This document shows positions 1 through 27,529 of a stretch of 64,000 nucleotides of DNA, one piece after another. The stretch is taken from assembly GCA_965248435.1 (NCBI GenBank), contig OZ252100.1, forward strand, positions 1,024,001-1,088,000, in the 5' to 3' direction. Every line of letters begins with the position of its first letter. The stretch's first letter is position 1. The notes below the pieces were generated by a model. It did not search any database and was not told where the DNA came from. It was given only the letters and a program-made list of their open reading frames with translations. The position numbers and the translations under genes are program-made. The DNA is from Candidatus Latescibacterota bacterium. Lineage in GTDB: Bacteria > Latescibacterota > UBA2968 > GCA-2709665.

Positions 1-137
1 GCATCACATATCCACACTGCATCGAAGACCCTGACGTCGTTCATCAAGCCTTGATTCCTTCATTCCGATTGCCTACATTTCTCGGTCGTGAGCGCGATGA
101 GTGGTCGTCGCAGAGAAGCACTCCGAAAATCGAGATG

Positions 138-170
138 GAAAAACCGTTGGCCTACGCCGGCGGTTTTCTC
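138..170 (+). terminator. Stem-loop, probable intrinsic terminator
   Basis: GAAAAACCGTTGGC-CTAC-GCCGGCGGTTTTCTC; G-U pairs favour the + strand. Confidence 0.5.
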
Positions 171-321
171 GTTGTAAGGAGAGGTTGGTAATCAGGATTC
201 CTCATCACTAAGGTCGTTGTAGCTGACGACCGCGTCATCGGCTCCCTTTGCCTTTCTCGATCCGTTCGGCTTCTAGCCCTCTCTGTCGATCTGCTACCGG
301 ACGGGATTCGGGCGGCTGTTT

Positions 322-573
322 TTACGGCTGTCCCGGTTCATCGGGAGCCCATCCCGGAACCCCATACCGTGGTGCATCGAATGAGATCTTGGATGCTGGA
401 ATCCCTCTCTCTTCCAGGAGCTCCCTGACGTGATCTCGCTCACTCGGGCCAAACGGACCGATGTGATGGACTCGCGCATCTCGAGATCCGATCACGTTGA
501 AGTTTGAGAGCTTGTCGTAGAACTCAGGACACGACGGGAACACTTGGATATAGTATTGTTGCCTAGCCATCAT
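322..573 (-). CDS. Hypothetical protein, 83 aa
   Basis: Protein-like ORF co-directional with the other island genes; weak RBS; no recognised motif. Confidence 0.35.
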   Translation of the reverse strand: MMARQQYYIQVFPSCPEFYDKLSNFNVIGSRDARVHHIGPFGPSERDHVRELLEERGIPASKISFDAPRYGVPGWAPDEPGQP

Positions 574-700
574 CTCGCTGCTGGTGTCTGTTAAGGAGCT
601 TGCTAACCGCTCCCTTCAGGCTCTGCCTTTCTTTCAGGACATGATCAATTCGGTCAGCCAGGTCGATCAGCACTTCCCGTGAGTGCGCGCCGTGTTGCCT

Positions 701-1378
701 TTAATCCTCCTGATCCTCCTTCATATGGTAGTCATGACCGAACCATTTATCTGTTTCCAGCGATTTGGATCTGGCTGACTGTTCTATACGCAGCAGGCAT
801 TCATAAAGCATATCGAACCCTATAGTTGGAACCGGCTCTCCTTGGAAAGTAGTTTCATCGAAGGAAATGCCCTGTGGCCCTCCCAAACCGTGGATAAAAG
901 AGGACCGGATGGAAGCATATGTGAAAGCCGCCAGAGTGCCTCTCCACACATTCCGAGAGAACCACTCACGTTCATGGGCAGTATGGTGTGGAGCCGTCAT
1001 CTGGCCGATTCCCTCTTCCGAGTACAGGCGACCTTTTGCGTTCTCCAAAAGCGTCCGAGTTTTCCTCAATATCGCTTGGACTCGCTTCCCTCGCCTGCCG
1101 GACAGATAGTCGAGAAGCATCTGGGGATGCACCTGCGTAAGCACTTTACACTCGCCATACTCCTTGATTAGCCGGACGAAGTTATAGTTGGAACGATCGT
1201 CTGTCCAATACATCTGATTCGCGAGACCGTCAATGTAAGAACAGCATAGGAGCAGAGCTTCGTGATCGTGGCCTGACTCACGAAGTTCCACACAGAACTC
1301 GATTCGCGCTTCCAGGTCGTCGAAATAGCTCTCGATGATTCTGTGCTTGGCCTGCGTGTTAGTATCCTCATTAGCCAT
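701..1378 (-). CDS. HEPN-like domain protein
   Basis: Helical 225-aa ORF; ALLLCCSYIDGLA helix and RxxxxH motif (IRSSFIHG); GGAG RBS upstream. Confidence 0.6.
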   Translation of the reverse strand: MANEDTNTQAKHRIIESYFDDLEARIEFCVELRESGHDHEALLLCCSYIDGLANQMYWTDDRSNYNFVRLIKEYGECKVLTQVHPQMLLDYLSGRRGKRVQAILRKTRTLLENAKGRLYSEEGIGQMTAPHHTAHEREWFSRNVWRGTLAAFTYASIRSSFIHGLGGPQGISFDETTFQGEPVPTIGFDMLYECLLRIEQSARSKSLETDKWFGHDYHMKEDQED

Positions 1379-1453
1379 TATCCATCTCCAGAACGATGCA
1401 ACGGCAACATGGCTCGCAAGTTGCCGAAGCGCTTCAGCATCCAGAATATAGTC

Positions 1454-1475
1454 AAAAACCTCCCGATCGGGGAGG
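1454..1475 (-). terminator. Intrinsic terminator
   Basis: Minus strand CCTCCC-CGATC-GGGAGG-TTTTT. Confidence 0.6.
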
Positions 1476-1510
1476 CTCCATACTTACAGCCAGTTTGTCC
1501 AAACATGAGG

Positions 1511-1564
1511 CTATAGCCAGCTGGATTCCCTTGCGTAGATGAAGGCCTTCTTCGTCTGGTCCAT
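1511..1564 (-). pseudogene. Possible 5' stub of a serine recombinase gene
   Basis: AAGGTGA RBS then MDQTKKAFIYARESSWL*, matching the resolvase N-terminal Y-x-R-x-S catalytic motif; only 17 codons. Confidence 0.4.
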
Positions 1565-1787
1565 CGTTTGGTCACCTTTGGAATGAAATCGCGTAAGTGT
1601 CCTGGATTTGGTTATAAACGGTATTGAATCGAGGTGCTTGACCCCCACTACACAACTTTGGTCGATTCCCTCAATTTTTGAGCGCCTCTACAGTCAGGTG
1701 ATCGAGTGCTTGACTTTTGATGGAATTTTCGTATTGAAGGCCTGCAACAAAGTTTAACTCTTAGTCCGAGACACGTTTTGGGTAATC

Positions 1788-1818
1788 AAAAGGCCAGCCC
1801 TTGCAAAACGAGCTGGCC
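1788..1818 (-). terminator. Intrinsic terminator
   Basis: GGCCAGC/GCTGGCC stem followed by TTTT on the minus strand. Confidence 0.5.
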
Positions 1819-1843
1819 AAACGGTGCCGAACACCATTTCTCT

Positions 1844-1889
1844 ATGAAAAGGCCCCAGGGATCATCCAAATCCCCAGGGCTATTTTCAT
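1844..1889 (-). terminator. Intrinsic terminator after the 190-aa gene
   Basis: Minus strand GCCCTGGGGAT...ATCCCTGGGGC-CTTTT, 25 nt after the stop. Confidence 0.6.
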
Positions 1890-1914
1890 CGATTCTATCA
1901 CTGCCGCTTGAATG

Positions 1915-2487
1915 CTAGCGACCAGGATAATAGGTCTTGAATGGTAGCAATGCTTTCGTATTTCTGCTTATGCCCGCCAGTTCGTGATTCGTGACTATCG
2001 TTAGCTTCAGTATTCCTCTTCCTTCTATCCTCCTCACAGATATTGCCCAGCTTCTGTCATCTACTTTCTCAGCGTGCACCTCTCCTTTTCCTTCATTAAA
2101 TACATAGTCTTGATCAATTTCTGTGATTTCACCAGGAAAGCCCTTCTTCATTTCCAGTCTGATTCTGGGGCTCATTTCTACATCTTTCTCAGTACTGAGA
2201 GCTTTAATAAACACTTCCAACTTCTGATTGTCATACGTAGTCTCGGTTAGATTGATTATGAACAGATCAACCGACACTTTCTCCCCAGAAGCGTTGTAGG
2301 GTTCGAAGACACAGTAGAGAGGATAATTCGACGCCTCTTGTCTGAGGCCAAGCAATTCGAAAATCGCCGGCTTGAAAACAATGACCGTCAAGAAAAGAAT
2401 GAGGGCGGTCATGATGTTTGCCAAGACTGGCGTGAGAATGTTCCTTTTGACGTCCCATCCTCTGAACATACTGTGGAGTTTGCCCAT
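1915..2487 (-). CDS. Membrane-anchored hypothetical protein
   Basis: One N-terminal TM segment (LANIMTALILFLTVIVF) followed by a beta-rich domain. Confidence 0.7.
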   Translation of the reverse strand: MGKLHSMFRGWDVKRNILTPVLANIMTALILFLTVIVFKPAIFELLGLRQEASNYPLYCVFEPYNASGEKVSVDLFIINLTETTYDNQKLEVFIKALSTEKDVEMSPRIRLEMKKGFPGEITEIDQDYVFNEGKGEVHAEKVDDRSWAISVRRIEGRGILKLTIVTNHELAGISRNTKALLPFKTYYPGR

Positions 2488-2532
2488 ATGAATATCTCAG
2501 TAGTTTACTACTGATTTGCTGTGGAATCACCT

Positions 2533-3147
2533 CTACTGCGACAGTTGGGTAGTTATCTCATCCAACTTGCGTAATATCGCGTAAATTTGTCTCCTAATAG
2601 CGTCTATGTCTCCAGGAGTCACCTGATCGAATTTCTGATCAAGATTGATTCGTTCGACTTTCCCGATTTTCACACTTTTACCTCGATCACCAGATCCTGA
2701 GGATTTGTCCATTACCATAGGGTGGAGTATTCCACGGATTTGTGTCAGACCCGGGGGCCAGTCTACCCTTGCAGTGAAACGAGTGTCTACAGGATTTCCT
2801 GAGACGGTGAAGCAACGGACATATAGGTTGAAGTCTTTTCCCCGAGAACCCCATTTCGCCACCTTGCAACTCTCGCTGCTACCCCCGTAGGCAGTGACTT
2901 GGACACTCCCCCCCTCCTTGCCATTTCCCCCAAGCCCTGGGAACCGGACCCGATAGACACCGACACCCGTTCGAACGATCTTGGGATGTTCCCCGCACGA
3001 ATTGTACGAGTACGTAGAACTCGGAGTATAGCTCTTTTCTGTAGGCTTGTCCGCGAATACATAACCCAATCCTTTTCCTTCTTGCGCAAGCGCGAAAGTA
3101 GGTACGGCCCAAACCATTATAGTTGTGATGAGGAGTCGCATGCTCAT
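2533..3147 (-). CDS. Secreted hypothetical protein
   Basis: Signal peptide (..TFALA-QE), beta-rich Cys-containing domain (YVFADKP..SYTPS..CKV..VRCF), C-terminal coiled coil; GGAGGTGAG RBS. Confidence 0.75.
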   Translation of the reverse strand: MSMRLLITTIMVWAVPTFALAQEGKGLGYVFADKPTEKSYTPSSTYSYNSCGEHPKIVRTGVGVYRVRFPGLGGNGKEGGSVQVTAYGGSSESCKVAKWGSRGKDFNLYVRCFTVSGNPVDTRFTARVDWPPGLTQIRGILHPMVMDKSSGSGDRGKSVKIGKVERINLDQKFDQVTPGDIDAIRRQIYAILRKLDEITTQLSQ

Positions 3148-3309
3148 CTCTCACCTCCCTATTCTTCGCCTTAAGTCAAGGCTCTTGATGAAAGTCTGGG
3201 GGAAGCCCCGATCATTCTGTCGTATTCCCGCCCTCATTCTTGTATGACCCACGTCAAGATATTCTGATGAAAATTGCGGGTGTATTCTTGGCGGAAGCGG
3301 AAGTACTAT

Positions 3310-4185
3310 CTATCGATTCCGAAGGAGCAAGACAATTATGGAGAGGAGACGATGGAAGAGGAAATCGATTTGACTGGCCTGCTGAATCTTCGGCTTTGAG
3401 GTCTCTGAGTGCCTGATCTGAAATTGATTGCCTATGTCTGTAAGGTCTTGAGCTTCCTCTTCCAGTACTTGACGAAACATAGGCTCTGAAGCCGACTTGT
3501 TGAGTATCTTCATAAAGCTATCCTTCTTGTCTTTCCCAGGCTCGAGCGTCTTTAGACGTTCCCAAGCATCCCAGAGCTTCTCTATAGCCTCACGACGAAC
3601 GGCGACATCTGCATTGACGATTTTGCTGATGGCAGTTTCGAGCATTTCATCAAGTTCACTATCTCCGGCGCTAATGACTGTTTCCGTGACTAGCTCATGC
3701 AAACCCGGTGGTAGAAGACGCTCAACACACCCCTTCTCGCTCAGTTGAAAGGCAATACCATTACGGGCAAATATTCGGTTGACATCATCTCTGAAGGAAA
3801 GTTGACCGGCCTCTCGGTCAAAAGTCAGGTGATAGTGGTCATAGAACTTGTGGAATGATCTTTGGATGGGCTCAGCTACGTGAGAATAGCAGAATTCCAA
3901 TAGATCCAATACACCTAGCAGAGGAGGTCGTTCCTGGACATCGAGAGGCCAAAAGACATCCTGGATCTCAGCTTGCAGAGCCAAGCCTATAGTATTCGAG
4001 TCAGTGGCAATACATCCTGGCCTTTCAGGATCAGGACACTGCTCAGGGAAGTCAATTCCGAATGCTCCAGTGGAAACTCGACTTTGAACATTGGAGACGA
4101 TTCCACCCCACACCTGCTGAGATATCTCTTCAGTTATCCGAGGCCCCTGGCCCATTTCTCTGTCACTGAAGTAATTGTCTCGCAT
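3310..4185 (-). CDS. AbiJ-NTD4-like abortive-infection protein
   Basis: N-terminus YFSDRE.G..PR..EEI..VWGGIV; C-terminus REAIEKLWDAWERLK and GNQFQIRHSE..DFLFHRL, recognised as AbiJ-related. Confidence 0.7.
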   Translation of the reverse strand: MRDNYFSDREMGQGPRITEEISQQVWGGIVSNVQSRVSTGAFGIDFPEQCPDPERPGCIATDSNTIGLALQAEIQDVFWPLDVQERPPLLGVLDLLEFCYSHVAEPIQRSFHKFYDHYHLTFDREAGQLSFRDDVNRIFARNGIAFQLSEKGCVERLLPPGLHELVTETVISAGDSELDEMLETAISKIVNADVAVRREAIEKLWDAWERLKTLEPGKDKKDSFMKILNKSASEPMFRQVLEEEAQDLTDIGNQFQIRHSETSKPKIQQASQIDFLFHRLLSIIVLLLRNR

Positions 4186-4274
4186 TGGTAGATAGAATTC
4201 TATAAAGGAACTTCTATGCTGTTACAAACGAAGCAATTTGAAACAGGAGCAGAACGATCAGTTCGGTACTCAGC

Positions 4275-4283
4275 ATTATACCA
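4275..4283 (-). promoter_or_regulatory. Extended -10 promoter for the AbiJ-like gene
   Basis: TGgTATAAT on the minus strand, 90 nt upstream of the ATG. Confidence 0.5.
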
Positions 4284-4335
4284 GCATATCCCGGCGTCTG
4301 GCCTCAATGGGAGATTCTCTATCAGATACAATCCC

Positions 4336-4563
4336 TCAACGATTCAGTATTTGTCTAGCCCTTTCCTTATACTCGATGGGAATGGCCCAGCGAGTGCCTG
4401 AAAATGTGAGAGTTGGTGACTCAGTGGGAAGTCCTTGGTTAATCCAATTTGTGATAAACACCTCGTCTATAGCCTCCCAGGATCGATCAGTCTCGGAAAG
4501 GTAATGCTCCACATCCCACTCGCCGAACCAATCAGAAGGTTCCGCTAACCGCGCCCGCGAGTG
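4336..4563 (-). pseudogene. Gene fragment lacking a clear start
   Basis: 75-codon open frame (..LAEPSDWFGEWDVEHYLSETDRSWEAIDEVF..RARQILNR*) with protein-like composition; only an internal GTG. Confidence 0.3.
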
Positions 4564-4633
4564 CTAACGCTACCTCGCATCATAACGCAGAAAACCTACA
4601 AATGCTCATATAAACACCCCATCTCATTTGTTT

Positions 4634-5668
4634 CTAGCGAAGGAATGGGTCATTTAGGTTGTGATTCGCAAGATCTTCTTTGGAGTCCCCCTGAACAACG
4701 GCCTCTATGAACCACGCACCCCTTTCGAAAGCAAGTTCAAACTCAGCGAATACGTAGTGAGTATCCTGGATAACCCTTTCAAACACATAATGTCCATTGA
4801 TATCTGAACGCGTCGACAGCTCTAGGTGCCGTTCCATTAGAGCCCTGACTCGCCGATTATGCTCGGCTTTCACAACTGAAGCTTCAGCAGAAATCTTATC
4901 TGAGGTTATTCCAAGTCTCTCTGCGATTTGAGGAAGTCTTTTGCACTGTTCGTTCAGGGCGTCAAGGGAAAAAGGCTTTGATTCGATCTTGCTTGAGATT
5001 GTTCGCAAAGCAGATCCGTGCGTGTCATAGACACTCATAAGCATTGTGTACCAGGTGTCGTATACCTCTACTAGGTTTTCTTCAAATGACTTCAAGCGCG
5101 CATCTCTTCCGATCCCTGCCTTCTCTAGCGCTTCCAGCTTCAATAATGCGAGATCAGTACCCACCTTGGCACTGACCAGACCCGTCTCGAAGACCCACAA
5201 ACGGTCTCCACTCGCCACAAGGAAGTCACTCAAAGCGCCGAGCGCCTCATTCATCGCCTTTAGCTCAGCCCTCGCGGAATCGAGGGTACCCGACCAGTCA
5301 TTCAATACCAACGACATACGAGTCGCTGCTTCGTGCTTGGAGGTTTCCATTCCATCGTTAATCCGCTTACCTAACATTAGAACTTCAATACCTCCTAACG
5401 CTCTTGTCTCACCACTCTTCAGAAGGAGAAACACATCACCCGTAAGTATCTTGAGAAGTTTCCTTTCCGCCACTGCCCTATGTTCCGTATCGGGATACTC
5501 TTTTAGGAGTTTCCTATACAGTGAATCCGCATCGATGTAACTCCCATACTTGTAAGCAAGCCGGGCACTATTGGCAAGATCATCCTCGTTGGAGCACGAA
5601 ATGACCAAAAGAATCAGGAAAAGAGCGCAGTAGACAAAATTCTCCGTTCTCACCTTAGCTCCATACAC
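4634..5668 (-). CDS. Lipoprotein: TPR-like segment, long helical region, beta-sandwich-like elements
   Basis: Lipobox LLVISC; YRKLLKEYPDT TPR-like; C-terminal TRSDINGHYVFERV..THYVFA. Confidence 0.7.
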   Translation of the reverse strand: MYGAKVRTENFVYCALFLILLVISCSNEDDLANSARLAYKYGSYIDADSLYRKLLKEYPDTEHRAVAERKLLKILTGDVFLLLKSGETRALGGIEVLMLGKRINDGMETSKHEAATRMSLVLNDWSGTLDSARAELKAMNEALGALSDFLVASGDRLWVFETGLVSAKVGTDLALLKLEALEKAGIGRDARLKSFEENLVEVYDTWYTMLMSVYDTHGSALRTISSKIESKPFSLDALNEQCKRLPQIAERLGITSDKISAEASVVKAEHNRRVRALMERHLELSTRSDINGHYVFERVIQDTHYVFAEFELAFERGAWFIEAVVQGDSKEDLANHNLNDPFLR

Positions 5669-5702
5669 CTTACTTTTCCACTATATCAGAAACCCCTATG
5701 GC

Positions 5703-6785
5703 TCACCCAGGACTCTGTCCAATAGCGTTCTCGGGAAAAGTGACGTTGAGGCGTAGATTCTTTTCACCAAATCTCCCTTCTCTTTTCCGAACAGGTAGCC
5801 ATCTTGGACCATCGGTGCCGTGAACGCTTTCCCAAATTGTGCGTATAATTTCGAAAGTGGAGTCTACAGCTTGATCAACAACCTCGTGTGAGACATCATG
5901 AAACATTGATTCCTTTACGTAACCACGTTCCGATCTTTGGGAGCCGGGCTCGCAGTGTATAATTGCATCCCGACGTAATTTGATGGAGCCAAATAGGACC
6001 GACATCGGTGGATTATTAGCATCCAGGTTGCACTCCTTAGCACCGATCGCGGGAGGAAGCTGAATTATTCTATTCTTCAATGCCTTCCTTGTATCGGTCA
6101 GTTTTCTGCGAAGCGGGGCTTCGATGTTTGGGTGCTCCATAATGTAGGCACGAGCAAGGCCGGACACAAAAGACTCGAGTAGATTGAAGCAAGTAACTAT
6201 AACTCCCCGTGCTAGTGACTGCCAATTCTCTGCAGCTGCGCCGACCCATTCGGGAGGCGGGATATTTTCGACCGATCTTATGAGATCTTGAGCATCTCTG
6301 AAAAGGTTGTAAATCAAGCTGAGATCTCGGGAAAGCATGTACTCTGGGTGCCGAATAGCAACGCCAAATCCTGGCTGCAACAATAACTCGCCATAAGGTG
6401 GAACCTCTACAAGCCTATGGGCAGTGAGTTTCCCTACGTTTGATTCAAACTCTTGTGCCGTGCTGAGTGTCAACGTATTGCAAAACGGCTCACTGGTCTG
6501 CATGCATTGATCAAACTTATCTGCAAGCCGGGCTGCCGCATTGAGGCGCTGTCTTTTTCCTTTCGCCTCCACAATACGATTCAGAGCATCGTAAAAATCG
6601 TAGCGGAGGTCGCCGACATACTTCCTCAGTCGCTTAAGTGTCATTTGACTACAATTTTCCACGCTAAGGTCAGTATGAGTAGGGATCTCACCTAACCAAA
6701 ATAGGCACAAGACCCACGCCTTCTTAAGAATAACACTTTCTGCTGCCAGCAAGTCTCTTCGCGTCTTCATATCCAGCCCAGCCAC
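5703..6785 (-). CDS. HEPN-like domain protein with N-terminal extension
   Basis: VIVTCFNLLESFVS helix and RxxxxH motif (RRDAIIHC). Confidence 0.65.
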   Translation of the reverse strand: MAGLDMKTRRDLLAAESVILKKAWVLCLFWLGEIPTHTDLSVENCSQMTLKRLRKYVGDLRYDFYDALNRIVEAKGKRQRLNAAARLADKFDQCMQTSEPFCNTLTLSTAQEFESNVGKLTAHRLVEVPPYGELLLQPGFGVAIRHPEYMLSRDLSLIYNLFRDAQDLIRSVENIPPPEWVGAAAENWQSLARGVIVTCFNLLESFVSGLARAYIMEHPNIEAPLRRKLTDTRKALKNRIIQLPPAIGAKECNLDANNPPMSVLFGSIKLRRDAIIHCEPGSQRSERGYVKESMFHDVSHEVVDQAVDSTFEIIRTIWESVHGTDGPRWLPVRKREGRFGEKNLRLNVTFPENAIGQSPG

Positions 6786-6853
6786 TCAGTGGATAGTCTA
6801 TAAAAGAACCTCCACCAGATTTCTAATTCACATCTTCCTTTCTCCCCGCAACT

Positions 6854-7513
6854 TCAACAGGTGTGATCTTGAGAGACCATATGAAACTCGAAGCCATATC
6901 TTGGGTTTAGTGTCGCATAGCGCCAAAGCACAAGATCAACCTCTGCGACATCATCGCCAGTCATCTCTCCGATTGTCATGCATAAATCCTGTGCTGAATC
7001 AAATCCAGCCGCCTCTGCGATCCTAACCATATGCCGATCAGGCTTGGCAACGGAAATTCCGATGTTCTTCAGAAGATGTAAACCGGTCACTGGACCTATG
7101 AATGGAAAGTTCTGAACGTAATCAAGACGATACTCCCACGTACGCTTCTTAACATTCTTAAATTTCTCATCTGCCACTTTTCCGATAATATCACAAATGG
7201 CGTTAATCTTGGCCAGGTGTCGAAAAATCTCAAGAGCTCTCTTTCGACAATCGTCTAAAACCGAGCATATCGCGCCGGCGCTACGCCACTCCAAAAAAGC
7301 GCAAGAGACACCGGGGAAAAGGCTACGAACTATGGCTTCGCGGAATCCGGAAGACAAAACAACCCATGCTGTCTCCCGGAGGAATTCGCTTTCCGTAAGG
7401 TCATCAAATGACCGTTCCGACTGCCAGTCTAGCTCCCAACCATAGCCCTGCTGAACAACGAATTCCTTGGCATCAAGGTATTTGTGCACTAGCAATTCCA
7501 GGCCTTCATCCAT
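6854..7513 (-). CDS. HhH-GPD superfamily DNA glycosylase-like protein without Fe-S cluster
   Basis: HhH FPFIGPVTGLHLLKNIG then KPDRH (catalytic Asp position); DLVLW at C-terminus; ATG at 7513 overlaps the upstream stop (ATGGATGA). Confidence 0.7.
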   Translation of the reverse strand: MDEGLELLVHKYLDAKEFVVQQGYGWELDWQSERSFDDLTESEFLRETAWVVLSSGFREAIVRSLFPGVSCAFLEWRSAGAICSVLDDCRKRALEIFRHLAKINAICDIIGKVADEKFKNVKKRTWEYRLDYVQNFPFIGPVTGLHLLKNIGISVAKPDRHMVRIAEAAGFDSAQDLCMTIGEMTGDDVAEVDLVLWRYATLNPRYGFEFHMVSQDHTC

Positions 7514-8036
7514 GATTGCCTCTCTTAAAGCTCCTGCACAAACCACGCCAACGTAGTTGGGCACTCAGTACCAACACCGGCGCTCCAGGGCACTCATCAA
7601 TCCTTCTACTGAGTAGCATCTTAAAAGCATGCCGTGCTTTAAGTCTGGCAAACTTTCTTTCGGGAATCTCTACAACGCTTCCCATGGCCTCAGTAAACCT
7701 TGTGTGGAGACGCTTATTTTCGTCCTCATCTTTTCCCCTGTATTCAGAATACGATTCCCGGTAATCAGATTTCAGCACACTCAATTTCTTTACGGCCTCA
7801 TCATGCAAAGCTGATTTTCCCTCCCAATCCACCCGAAACCCAACTAATGCGAACACAAAAACAAGGATGGAGGCCAATCCGAGACCAAGTTTGATTGTAT
7901 CAGGCCTTAGGCCAAAGTAGGCTTCTATTTCGTTATCTGCGAATACAAGCGCGCAAAGAAAGGTTGTTGTTACTAGCAATGCGAGATTCAAAGAAAGCGC
8001 ACGGCGGATGTAATTGTCCCTTTCTAAGGCGTGCAT
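7506..8036 (-). CDS. SLATT-like two-TM effector, probably 5'-truncated
   Basis: Two TM helices then W..KS..H..A..KLS.LK..Y helical region; frame stays open and protein-like upstream to about 8085 (KSENDRQYDTINQTLS) with no start codon. Confidence 0.6.
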   Translation of the reverse strand: MHALERDNYIRRALSLNLALLVTTTFLCALVFADNEIEAYFGLRPDTIKLGLGLASILVFVFALVGFRVDWEGKSALHDEAVKKLSVLKSDYRESYSEYRGKDEDENKRLHTRFTEAMGSVVEIPERKFARLKARHAFKMLLSRRIDECPGAPVLVLSAQLRWRGLCRSFKRGNHG

Positions 8037-8038
8037 GC

Positions 8039-8530
8039 TTAGGGTTTGATTAATGGTATCATACTGGCGATCATTTTCGCTCTTGAGACATCTTCTCTGC
8101 AGATCACCTGATTCCGCGCGTTCAGGAAAACCGCCACAAAGTACTCCTTCCTGCGGTCCTTGATGTCGGACACGATCGGCACGAGATCCGCTGGGCTCGT
8201 GATCGTGGGCGCGATTCCGATTCCTTTTCCAAGTCCTCTGCGCGAGAATTCGAACGCCGCCATCATCCCTGCGGCCTTCGCGCGTCCGATCCCCTTGATC
8301 CGCGTCAACTCGGCGAGGCCCATCTTCATCAACTCCTCCGGCGAGCGCTTCACGAGGATCTCCGAGGCGATCTCCAGTACGTTTTTCCCCTCATAGCCGG
8401 TTCTGAGCAAGACAGCGAGCAGCTCCTCATTACGGAGTGCCTCTGGTCCCAACCGCTCCATCTTCTCGCGGGGCAGGTCTATGTCGGCAACACCGGGAAA
8501 TCCCTCACGCATACTCATACACAAAGCCAT
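8039..8530 (-). pseudogene. radC: Truncated RadC (UPF0758/JAB) protein
   Basis: PREKMERLGPEAL..ELLAVLLRTG, HhH IKGIGRAKA, KEYFVAVFLNARNQVI; similarity stops at REDVS, so the HPREVF and HNHPSG JAB motifs are absent; likely start 8512 or 8518. Confidence 0.85.
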
Positions 8531-8552
8531 TTGTCAATGCGACCCGCTACCC

Positions 8553-8740
8553 GATTCTGGAGTATTGGGGATACTCCTTGTGTTTCCACTACGCGATCAC
8601 AAATGTGATTCTGGAGTTTTGCAGTACTGGAGTGTTGGAAAAACCTGTTTTCTCATCCCTCCATTACTCCATTCCCCCATTACTCCAACACTCACGCTTT
8701 TTTCTCGGTTCCCATTACTCCATTCCCCCCATTACTCCAG
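8553..8740. repeat. Octamer-period tandem repeats in inverted arrangement
   Basis: (TGGAGTnn)-type units at about 8558-8573 and 8612-8640; complementary (CCATTACT/CCATTCCC) arrays at 8661-8692 and 8712-8739. Confidence 0.75.
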
Positions 8741-8786
8741 CAATCAGGTTTTTGTTCATCATTCCTCCCCCGCAAATTCCGTTCCG

Positions 8787-8835
8787 AAAACAAACAGGGG
8801 AAGATCCCCTTTTCCGAATTGGGATCTTCCCCTGT
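8787..8835 (-). terminator. Intrinsic terminator of the hybrid kinase gene
   Basis: Perfect 15-bp inverted repeat ACAGGGGAAGATCCC (8794-8808 / 8821-8835), followed by TTGTTTT on the minus strand. Confidence 0.8.
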
Positions 8836-8912
8836 CGTTCCAAACCTCGGCAACAAGGTCTGAACAGGTCGTTCACTCAGTCAAGCAAAAGACGTTCAGA
8901 GATCACACTTCG

Positions 8913-23725: not shown

Positions 23726-24400
23726 CTATGCGAGCGCTTTTCCATCCAGCCCTACGGGGCATAACCTCTGCAGTGGGCAGATGTCGCACTTCGGCTTTGG
23801 GCGACAGATGTCCTTGCCAAGAGCGACGATCAGCGCATGGTACTCCTTGTAGAGTCCTACATCTTTCGGAATCGAGTCGGAGAATCGTGCCCTGAGGTCA
23901 TCGTAGCCGATCTTTCCGTCTACAAGACCTAAGCGGCTGAAGATCCGTCGTGTATAGGCATCGACAACGAAGGTGGGCATTTCGAGGGCGTAGAGCAAAA
24001 TACTGTCTGCCGTCTCCGGCCCCACGCCGTTGACTTCCAGAAGCTCGGGTCGCAGTGCCTTCAATGACCTGGCCTTCATTTTACACGGCTTACTCTGGTA
24101 GTTCGACCCAAAGTAGCGCAGATAGGCCTTGAGCCGTTTGGCCTTGACGTTGAAATATCCGGCGGGGCGAATCAGTGCGGCGAGTTCCCGTTCCGAGATT
24201 CGATACATCGCCCTCGGTCCCAGTTTGTTGGAGGACCTTAGGTTCTCTATCGCCCGCTCGACGTTCTTCCAGGCCGTGTTCTGAGTCAGAATCGCGCCAA
24301 TCATAACCTCAAAGGCGGTCTCTGCCGGCCACCATCCCTGCGGGCCAAAGGAGGCGAAGAGCAGATCGAACACCTGCTGGAAGCGTCCCTCTCGAGGCAT
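23726..24400 (-). CDS. Endonuclease III-related HhH-GPD protein with Fe-S motif
   Basis: GAILTQNTAW, GVGPETADSILLYA, VVDAY, CRPKPKCDICPLQRLC. Confidence 0.92.
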   Translation of the reverse strand: MPREGRFQQVFDLLFASFGPQGWWPAETAFEVMIGAILTQNTAWKNVERAIENLRSSNKLGPRAMYRISERELAALIRPAGYFNVKAKRLKAYLRYFGSNYQSKPCKMKARSLKALRPELLEVNGVGPETADSILLYALEMPTFVVDAYTRRIFSRLGLVDGKIGYDDLRARFSDSIPKDVGLYKEYHALIVALGKDICRPKPKCDICPLQRLCPVGLDGKALA

Positions 24401-26848: not shown

Positions 26849-27529
26849 TCAGACCTTCCCTCGAGAAGGACAATGCCGGCCGATCTGGCAGGCCTCACAG
26901 TTCGGTGACCGCGCCTTACAGGTCGCCCTACCGTGGAGAATCAAGAGGTGTGAAAAGACGGCCCAGCTTCTCCTGGGCACCAGCTCCACAAGATCCCGCT
27001 CAACCTTGAGCGGATCCTTATGCTCGGTCAGTCCCAACCTCCGGGATATCCGACCGACGTGCGTATCTACTACGACTCCCTCCTGCAGGCCGAAGGCATT
27101 TCCCAGGACCACATTGGCCGTCTTTCTACCCACGCCGGACAGCCCGGTTAGATCCTTCATGGTCTTAGGAACTTCCCCGTCGTATTCCTCTGCTAGGGAC
27201 CGGCAACACGCCTTGATGGCCTTCGCCTTGTTGCGGAAGAATCCGGTCGTCCTGATCCGGTCCTCGAGATCCTCTAGAGGCGCGTCGGCGAAGTCGAAAG
27301 CATTCTGATAGGTTCGAAACAAACCCGGAGTAACCTTGTTCACGCGTTCGTCGGTGCACTGCGCAGACAAGATGGTCGCGACGAGAAGCTCAAGTGGATT
27401 CGAATGGCTTAGTGAGACCATTGCATCGGGAAAAACCTTCTTCAGCCGCGTGATAATCTTTCGCGTGCGCGACGCCTTCTTCTGCCCGTTCTCCTCTAAA
27501 TGGTCGTCCTCCAATTTCGCCTTCCTCAT
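26849..27529 (-). CDS. nth: Endonuclease III
   Basis: LLVATILSAQCTDERVN, GVGRKTANVVLG, VVDTHV, C-x6-C-x2-C-x5-C. Confidence 0.95.
   Translation of the reverse strand: MRKAKLEDDHLEENGQKKASRTRKIITRLKKVFPDAMVSLSHSNPLELLVATILSAQCTDERVNKVTPGLFRTYQNAFDFADAPLEDLEDRIRTTGFFRNKAKAIKACCRSLAEEYDGEVPKTMKDLTGLSGVGRKTANVVLGNAFGLQEGVVVDTHVGRISRRLGLTEHKDPLKVERDLVELVPRRSWAVFSHLLILHGRATCKARSPNCEACQIGRHCPSRGKV

Follow-up and report, generated by a model that had tools for sequence, protein, structure and literature searches.

A 2TM-Cap11 gene pair in a Candidatus Latescibacterota genome is a fragment of a type IV CBASS operon

In the available text of the report that describes them (10.1101/2025.04.06.647259, cited in the references of another paper as Science 389:1347), type IV cyclic oligonucleotide-based antiphage signaling systems (CBASS) require Cap9 and Cap10, by which a 7-deazaguanine derivative is put on the N terminus of the cyclase, and about one-third of the operons also encode Cap11, a relative of OGG. 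The same portion of that report states that deletion of Cap11 left defense and modification unaffected and raised toxicity in the one operon tested, and its authors suggest that Cap11 is a negative regulator. In the accessible part of a second report (10.64898/2025.12.03.692087), Cap9, Cap10, and Cap11 are also found beside TIR proteins. Here we analyze a 64,000-nucleotide stretch of a Candidatus Latescibacterota genome (contig OZ252100.1, positions 1,024,001 to 1,088,000; "the window" below), which carries a minus-strand run of four open reading frames (ORFs): a truncated radC (radC'), a two-transmembrane (2TM) gene, a gene for a helix-hairpin-helix (HhH) protein that we identify as Cap11, and a HEPN gene. 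The 2TM-Cap11 pair is a fragment of a type IV CBASS and not a system, because three defining components were tested for and are absent, and the pairing is an already known one rather than a new defense module.

From the letters of this stretch alone, the pair had been read as part of an unnamed module in which a glycosylase recognizes or removes modified phage bases and thereby sets off an effector, either a membrane protein or an RNase, with the HEPN gene as a further member. We found no support for such a module. The sequence-only reading had itself named, as one outcome that would speak against it, a pair that merely ends a CBASS described before, and this is the outcome obtained, because the pair belongs to a CBASS type that is on record. 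Its further suggestion that a cyclase may have been lost at the radC junction is supported by the operon order of relatives and by a breakpoint at 8083/8084.

The 2TM and Cap11 genes and their operon context

The 2TM ORF (7506 to 8036, minus strand; 176 amino acids) matches the PADLOC "2TM effector" model PDLC00681 at 3.9e-37, which places it in a CBASS effector family, and it is the only member of that family in the genome. Its hydrophobic segments lie at approximately residues 12 to 34 and 45 to 72. The description of this protein as SLATT-like holds for its family, 34 members of which gave 13 matches to SLATT_4 and 12 to SLATT_5 (E ≤ 0.01); the window protein itself stays below the SLATT cutoffs (SLATT_5, E = 0.22; SLATT_4, 23.6 bits versus a cutoff of 55). 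The TGA stop of the 2TM gene overlaps the ATG (7513) of the Cap11 gene in the minus-strand octamer ATGGATGA at 7506 to 7513, just as had been noted from the letters.

The HhH protein (6854 to 7513, minus strand; 219 amino acids, apparently intact) matches the PADLOC "OGG" model PDLC00910 at 2.2e-78 over model positions 10 to 208 of 215. It is a Cap11/OGG-type protein, and its earlier reading as glycosylase-like stands. Searches against Pfam and NCBIfam gave nothing above the cutoff for the 2TM, OGG-like, or HEPN protein; PADLOC assigned the first two and gave no family for the third. Among 326 OGG-like homologues (E ≤ 0.001), 26 were aligned, and the motif KPDRH (residues 157 to 161) is invariant in all 26. 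In a profile alignment that includes deposited K and D mutants, D159 stands opposite the Asp of solved Ogg2 glycosylases and V142 stands opposite their Lys, the residue that is changed in the deposited mutant 9o02. The Lys-equivalent position is occupied by V, I, T, or A in the 26 homologues and never by K, and the Fe-S motif C-x6-C-x2-C-x5-C is absent from the HhH protein sequence. The match to the solved Ogg2 structures is weak (2.6e-4, residues 121 to 203). Thus, the protein keeps the Asp of Nth/Ogg-type bifunctional glycosylase/lyases, has Val at the Lys position, and has no Cys motif, as the sequence-only reading had observed; because of the Val at the Lys position, apurinic/apyrimidinic (AP)-lyase chemistry appears unlikely for this Cap11. 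There is no match to Pfam HhH-GPD at E ≤ 0.001 in this protein. The window has two ordinary HhH-GPD genes at other positions (~23867 to 24301 and ~26975 to 27382), as had been read from the letters.

To place the pair, we scanned one genome per species with the alignment of 26 OGG sequences. This gave 111 stretches; a relative is encoded in 90 of them, from which we took the best 80 together with their flanks. Neighboring ORFs were clustered, recurrent clusters were named by PADLOC and Pfam, and hidden Markov models (HMMs) of the clusters were run against the six frames of every locus. All 80 loci carry OGG, and the 68 with at least 1,600 nt upstream of it were counted as informative; as the loci were found via OGG, remnants that keep other operon genes are invisible to these counts. 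Plasmid relatives were left out of them as well: a tblastn search of plasmids with the OGG protein found only distant relatives (26 to 39% identity, 15 records) in unrelated contexts.

The recurrent neighbors of OGG are a QueC-like gene (PADLOC, 1.1e-72; Pfam QueC), a TGT-like gene (2.7e-99), an oligonucleotide cyclase (2.4e-120; Pfam SMODS), and the same 2TM effector as in the window; some loci also carry a Cap17-like nucleosidase and an exonuclease. The usual gene order is QueC(Cap9)-TGT(Cap10)-cyclase-[2TM]-OGG, with the cyclase (CD-NTase) within 1.2 kb upstream of OGG in 58 of the 68 informative loci. Constant adjacency of the 2TM and glycosylase genes, which the sequence-only reading had put up for checking along with what lies upstream, was not found, since a full-length 2TM gene abuts OGG in only 30 of the 68 loci; what lies upstream is, in those 58 loci, a cyclase. 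The cyclase is present in every one of the 30 loci in which a full-length 2TM gene adjoins OGG. The closest relatives of the window pair are in loci L008 to L010, with 50 to 52% identity for the 2TM protein and 51 to 56% for the OGG protein. L008 and L009 are complete five-gene operons, and the contig of L010 begins within the cyclase. Cap11 is the last gene of this arrangement in the window, as it is in 58 of the 68 informative loci.

The cyclase is not directly upstream of OGG in the other 10 informative loci. Five of these have a gene for a PfkB/deoxyribosyltransferase fusion and a QueC gene before OGG, and one of the five (L072) has a cyclase further up. Three hold a 2TM fragment and OGG and no cyclase (L027:7764-8600, L063:7697-8636, and L086:1648-2785), with up to 8 kb of upstream sequence behind this statement and 1.6 kb in L086. 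In the last two, OGG stands alone (L022:4936-5607 and L077:7953-8627). These five loci with a 2TM fragment or OGG alone would be operon stumps in further genomes.

The set of loci gave several further observations. In four of the five fusion loci, a PfkB-kinase/nucleoside 2-deoxyribosyltransferase fusion (PF00294 plus PF05014), QueC, and OGG form a unit with no cyclase and no TGT-like gene (L047:6067-8642, L057:2676-5193, L058:5952-8633, and L070:5933-8624); in L072 (2346-7707), the fusion occupies the usual TGT-like position inside a cyclase operon. Such units may represent a QueC-based system of their own, or the fusion may stand in for Cap10. The TGT-like (Cap10) gene matches its model in two pieces in L009 (4799-6453, with ~0.6 kb of other sequence between them) and L041 (1341-3712, with ~1.3 kb between), and its pieces in L049 (5386-6417) are split by a frame change or stop. 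L020 has a cyclase fragment downstream of OGG on the opposite strand. In 3 of the 80 loci (L030:6908-7468, Pfam RadC 3.6e-43; L031:8931-9371; and L056:4007-4474), a short RadC-like JAB gene is found no more than ~3 kb from the type IV CBASS operon. On the Trichlorobacter lovleyi plasmid pIAE1 (L001:5425-6507), an OGG-like gene with 32% identity directly follows a gene for a 179-amino-acid hypothetical protein and is followed by a tyrosine recombinase gene; the 2TM and cyclase HMMs have no match there.

The genome of the window is assembled to 5.67 Mb in 2 contigs and, by marker counts, is 97.5% complete with 7% contamination. The whole genome gave no match to SMODS, to the type IV cyclase model PDLC00790, or to the Cap10 TGT model PDLC00913. 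In tblastn searches of the genome, the cyclases of 60 loci yielded one match (E = 0.009), there was no match to the TGT-like proteins of 56 loci, and the QueC-like proteins of 38 loci matched only two distant places (C1:0.408 Mb and 4.024 Mb; coordinates marked C1 are those of genome contig C1) at 24 to 30% identity. At the locus itself, radC' lies directly upstream of the 2TM gene, where relatives have the cyclase. Apart from the two distant QueC matches, then, neither the locus nor the genome holds Cap9 and Cap10. The PADLOC searches that had been recommended thus named both genes of the pair, and the neighborhood comparison supplied the operon to which they belong.

The lost 2TM start and the radC junction

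Homologues of the 2TM protein start ~19 codons upstream of the window Met, with a conserved M-x-K-x-E-N-x-R-Q-(Y/F), and the window ORF is without these first ~19 residues of the family. The first start codon in the 2TM frame is the ATG at 8036. Upstream of it lies a native 5' remnant of 16 codons (8037 to 8083, minus strand), (K)SENDRQYDTINQTLS, which has no in-frame ATG, GTG, or TTG and aligns with the conserved N-terminal stretch of the homologues; the match to the PADLOC 2TM model likewise reaches upstream to 8060. Alignment with the three nearest 2TM homologues places the break ~7 nt inside the native 2TM gene, the native start codon of which is lost.

What precedes the remnant is radC' (8039 to 8530, minus strand; 163 amino acids), which matches Pfam UPF0758_N at 2.1e-21, covers 48 of 121 positions of RadC JAB, and reaches 1.3e-28 against NCBIfam RadC, below the cutoff. 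The genome has two copies of radC, this truncated one and a full-length one (a 231-amino-acid open frame, C1:936846-937319). Residues 1 to 158 of radC' are 96% identical to that frame, and its last ~14 codons are island DNA read out of frame, ending in a TAA stop 2 nt ahead of the 2TM ATG. The two copies belong to a 0.83-kb direct repeat, represented in the window by 8084 to 8912 (minus strand; the radC upstream region and radC codons 1 to ~158) and elsewhere by C1:936873-937739 (part of the full-length radC). By blastn and MAFFT, the repeat copies are near-identical; the exceptions are an indel of 38 bp and an upstream end that has diverged. Homology ends exactly at 8083/8084, where the full copy continues through radC and the window copy enters the 2TM remnant. 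The GC content drops from ~0.55 to 0.57 above 8040 to ~0.47 below it. In a consensus scan, neither promoter-like sites ahead of the 2TM/OGG pair nor terminator-like sites between the genes exceeded chance.

The junction of radC' and the 2TM gene is not an assembly error, because contigs from a second assembler cross it, a separate branch leads into full-length radC, and depth approximately doubles over the repeat. The crossing contigs, of 25 kb (run X1) and 28 kb (run X3), extend 52 nt into the repeat with 0 mismatches and have single-copy depth. The two runs are from one sample, which is probably the source of the genome assembly.

Between the repeats lie ~94 kb with a GC content mostly of 0.48 to 0.53, compared with a genome mean of 0.566. 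This island spans C1:936873-1032912, and positions 1 to 8912 of the window are its right end. A layout of this kind would result from one crossover that brought a circular element with a radC fragment into the chromosome. A tyrosine-integrase island was considered and rejected, as 0 of 16 integrase matches fall within 937 to 1032 kb, and so was a conjugative element, as there is no VirB4 in the island; one of the genome's three resolvase-domain matches is inside it (C1:1009246-1009683). The ancestral neighbors of radC, as seen in genomes G001 and G002, are located here at C1:5.126 and 5.147 Mb; radC has therefore moved, and the synteny around it has been rearranged relative to those two genomes. 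Among the 21 other genomes of the same family, none carries the OGG gene and none carries the HEPN gene, which is consistent with acquisition of both on the island.

The repeat region has some features of its own. A short dispersed repeat upstream of radC' (8604 to 8768) has 20 or more further matches across the genome, with 71 to 84% identity; it shows an approximately tenfold spike in contig depth, and the radC copies differ there by the 38-bp unit. Four further RadC-JAB matches are present in the genome.

The HEPN gene and other genes of the island

The HEPN gene (5703 to 6785, minus strand; GTG start) lies 68 nt beyond the Cap11 gene and encodes a stand-alone protein of 360 amino acids that contains RRDAIIH. 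Both the spacing and the HEPN-like motif had been noted from the letters, and both hold. The motif's R272 and H277 (R-x4-H) are the same in all 34 aligned sequences. The protein has no Pfam, PADLOC, or NCBIfam family; its 102 homologues are all unnamed, as are several clusters in the ESM Atlas, and the family as a whole numbers several hundred proteins without a name. An AlphaFold (AF2) model (predicted local distance difference test [pLDDT], 92; predicted template modeling score [pTM], 0.88) suggests an N-terminal helical domain of ~125 residues followed by a HEPN domain at approximately residues 126 to 324. Foldseek of the model against the PDB gave no match at E ≤ 0.001. In an exhaustive structural search (VIA-align), the best rows for residues 126 to 324 were HEPN domains with Z scores of 8.7 to 7.1, a range to be read with the caveat that Z below ~13 is weak for helical bundles. 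These include the sacsin HEPN domain (3o10_A; Z, 8.7; root mean square deviation, 3.1; 133 of 139 residues aligned), the SO_3166-SO_3165 complex (5yep_B; Z, 8.5), an AMPylated HEPN toxin (8xdj_A; Z, 8.2), and AbiA (Z, 7.9), and HEPN appears in the titles of 6 of the 19 best structural rows. Motif and structural matches together lead us to assign the modeled protein a HEPN fold.

Membership of this gene in a module with the pair, as proposed by the sequence-only reading, is contradicted by the neighborhoods. No HEPN homologue occurs in any of 86 other OGG-side loci, and the 47 loci found via the HEPN family, drawn from metagenome contigs, contain no CBASS-family match. The largest sharing of any neighbor cluster among these 47 is 4 loci. 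In 168 genomes of the phylum, the HEPN family is represented only by the window's own copy and one weak match. The HEPN gene is an independent single gene of an uncharacterized family and a chance neighbor of the CBASS remnant in a defense-rich island. It is conceivable, though unlikely, that the 360-amino-acid protein represents a new single-gene abortive-infection family.

The island also holds a further candidate defense gene, the PADLOC candidate PDC-S32 (3310 to 4185, minus strand; 291 amino acids), with AbiJ N-terminal domain 4 (PDLC04995, 7.9e-57; PF18863 [AbiJ_NTD4], 1e-10). A 225-amino-acid ORF at 701 to 1378 (minus strand) contains IRSSFIH (R-x4-H) and may encode a second HEPN-like protein; it has no Pfam, PADLOC, or NCBIfam match.

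Readings of the locus and comparison with known systems

We consider the 2TM-Cap11 pair to be an orphaned, most likely nonfunctional relic, in which only the two final genes of a type IV CBASS operon are left, with a probability of roughly 0.88. Loss of function is suggested by two findings together, the absence of a cyclase from the genome and the lost start codon of the effector gene. In an intact operon, Cap9 and Cap10 prime the cyclase by adding 7-deazaguanine to its N terminus; infection then leads to synthesis of a cyclic nucleotide, the membrane effector becomes active, and the infection is aborted, with Cap11 dispensable for defense and apparently restraining activation. In the window, the operon is without the three genes at its front, those for Cap9 (QueC-like), Cap10 (TGT-like), and the CD-NTase, and an illegitimate recombination would have fused a duplicated 5' portion of radC with island DNA that starts ~7 nt into the 2TM gene. 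The effector would be left without an activating signal and without its own start codon. At most, the pair might be transcribed from the radC' promoter, with the 2TM protein translated from an internal Met.

Several points weigh against the relic reading. Both ORFs are open and, apart from the 2TM N terminus, full length relative to the models; therefore, decay, if any, is recent. With the radC' stop only 2 nt before the 2TM ATG, coupled translation could occur. There are also the 10 of 68 informative loci in which no cyclase is directly upstream of OGG. At 97.5% completeness by marker count, a cyclase could lie on unassembled DNA, and the runs that confirm the junction probably come from the same sample as the assembly itself.

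A self-contained module of two or three genes, with a glycosylase that recognizes or removes modified phage bases and switches on the 2TM protein, the HEPN RNase, or both without a cyclic nucleotide, would account for the tight packing of three open ORFs (an 8-nt overlap and then a 68-nt gap) and for the position of the locus among other defense candidates such as PDC-S32, and the loci with no cyclase directly upstream of OGG could be counted in its favor. However, an intact 2TM-OGG pair without a cyclase was not seen, the cyclase being present in 30 of 30 cases, and the three cyclase-less loci that have 2TM sequence (L027, L063, and L086) keep only fragments. The window 2TM gene is itself without its native start, and the HEPN family never accompanies OGG or 2TM genes (0 of 86 loci; 0 CBASS matches in the 47 HEPN loci). 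Cap11 was, moreover, dispensable for defense in the one operon tested, according to the available text of that report (10.1101/2025.04.06.647259). We regard such a module as very unlikely. The remnant might instead respond in trans to a nucleotide made by another CBASS, Thoeris, or Pycsar in the cell, which appears very improbable indeed. Cross-talk between unlinked signaling systems is not known to be the rule, and the genome has a single 2TM effector of the PDLC00681 family; searches for SMODS/CD-NTase and Cap10-type TGT genes, though not for TIR genes, found none in it. In favor of trans activation, the accessible part of the report on TIR operons shows Cap9 to Cap11 accompanying them, so that partners other than a CD-NTase exist (10.64898/2025.12.03.692087).

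It is hardly credible that the radC'-2TM junction is a chimera formed by the assembler at the repeat and that the operon is intact in the real chromosome. The junction does lie at the edge of a 0.83-kb near-identical repeat, where assemblers are prone to error, and marker counts indicate 7% contamination; against this, the X1 and X3 contigs of another assembler cross it without mismatches and at single-copy depth, with the full-radC branch separate, and the 5.67-Mb assembly contains no cyclase, Cap9-type, or Cap10-type sequence to which the pair could be joined. A different question is whether a Cap11-type protein keeps an activity of its own after the cyclase is lost, for example by clearing DNA or protein of 7-deazaguanine adducts or bases. 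The cyclase-less OGG loci, together with the still-open ORFs here, hint at a cyclase-independent role of Cap11-like proteins, and we nevertheless think it unlikely that such an activity has been retained. If it has, selection would still act on the remnant radC'-2TM(deltaN)-Cap11, with expression driven by the radC promoter, and the cyclase-less OGG loci (PfkB triads, solo OGG, and partial 2TM plus OGG) would be functional variants and not debris.

Returning to the relic reading, the locus would provide a dated example of CBASS operon decay, its effector gene being broken after 7 nt, at the island boundary. It also carries a caution, as a tidy, overlapping gene pair in a defense island may be the stump of a larger known operon, something that only neighborhood comparison reveals. 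The recurrence of Cap11-like genes outside cyclase operons bears on the question of what Cap11 does.

Compared with known systems, the HEPN protein resembles HEPN toxins and Abi proteins (HEPN-MNT, AbiA HEPN, and sacsin HEPN) in the R-x4-H motif and in the superposition of residues 126 to 324 of the model on nearly whole target domains, but it differs from them in its additional N-terminal domain of ~125 residues, in having no MNT-like or other conserved partner, and in matching no family. The window Cap11 aligns with archaeal-type Ogg2 (9o00 to 9o03 and 3knt) in the HhH hairpin and in the Asp of I-I-D-R-H/K-P-D-R-H, whereas it has Val for the Ogg2 Lys and the similarity is weak. Like SLATT 2TM effectors, the 2TM protein of the window would have a pair of transmembrane helices at its N terminus and a soluble tail after them, and members of its family match SLATT_4 and SLATT_5; the window protein itself is subthreshold for both. 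Type IV CBASS is the closest described system: the window differs from it in having no cyclase, Cap9, or Cap10 and in an effector gene that is short of its first codons, whereas the 2TM and Cap11 proteins match the PADLOC models of that system and their genes keep the same order and spacing as in the complete operons of their relatives.

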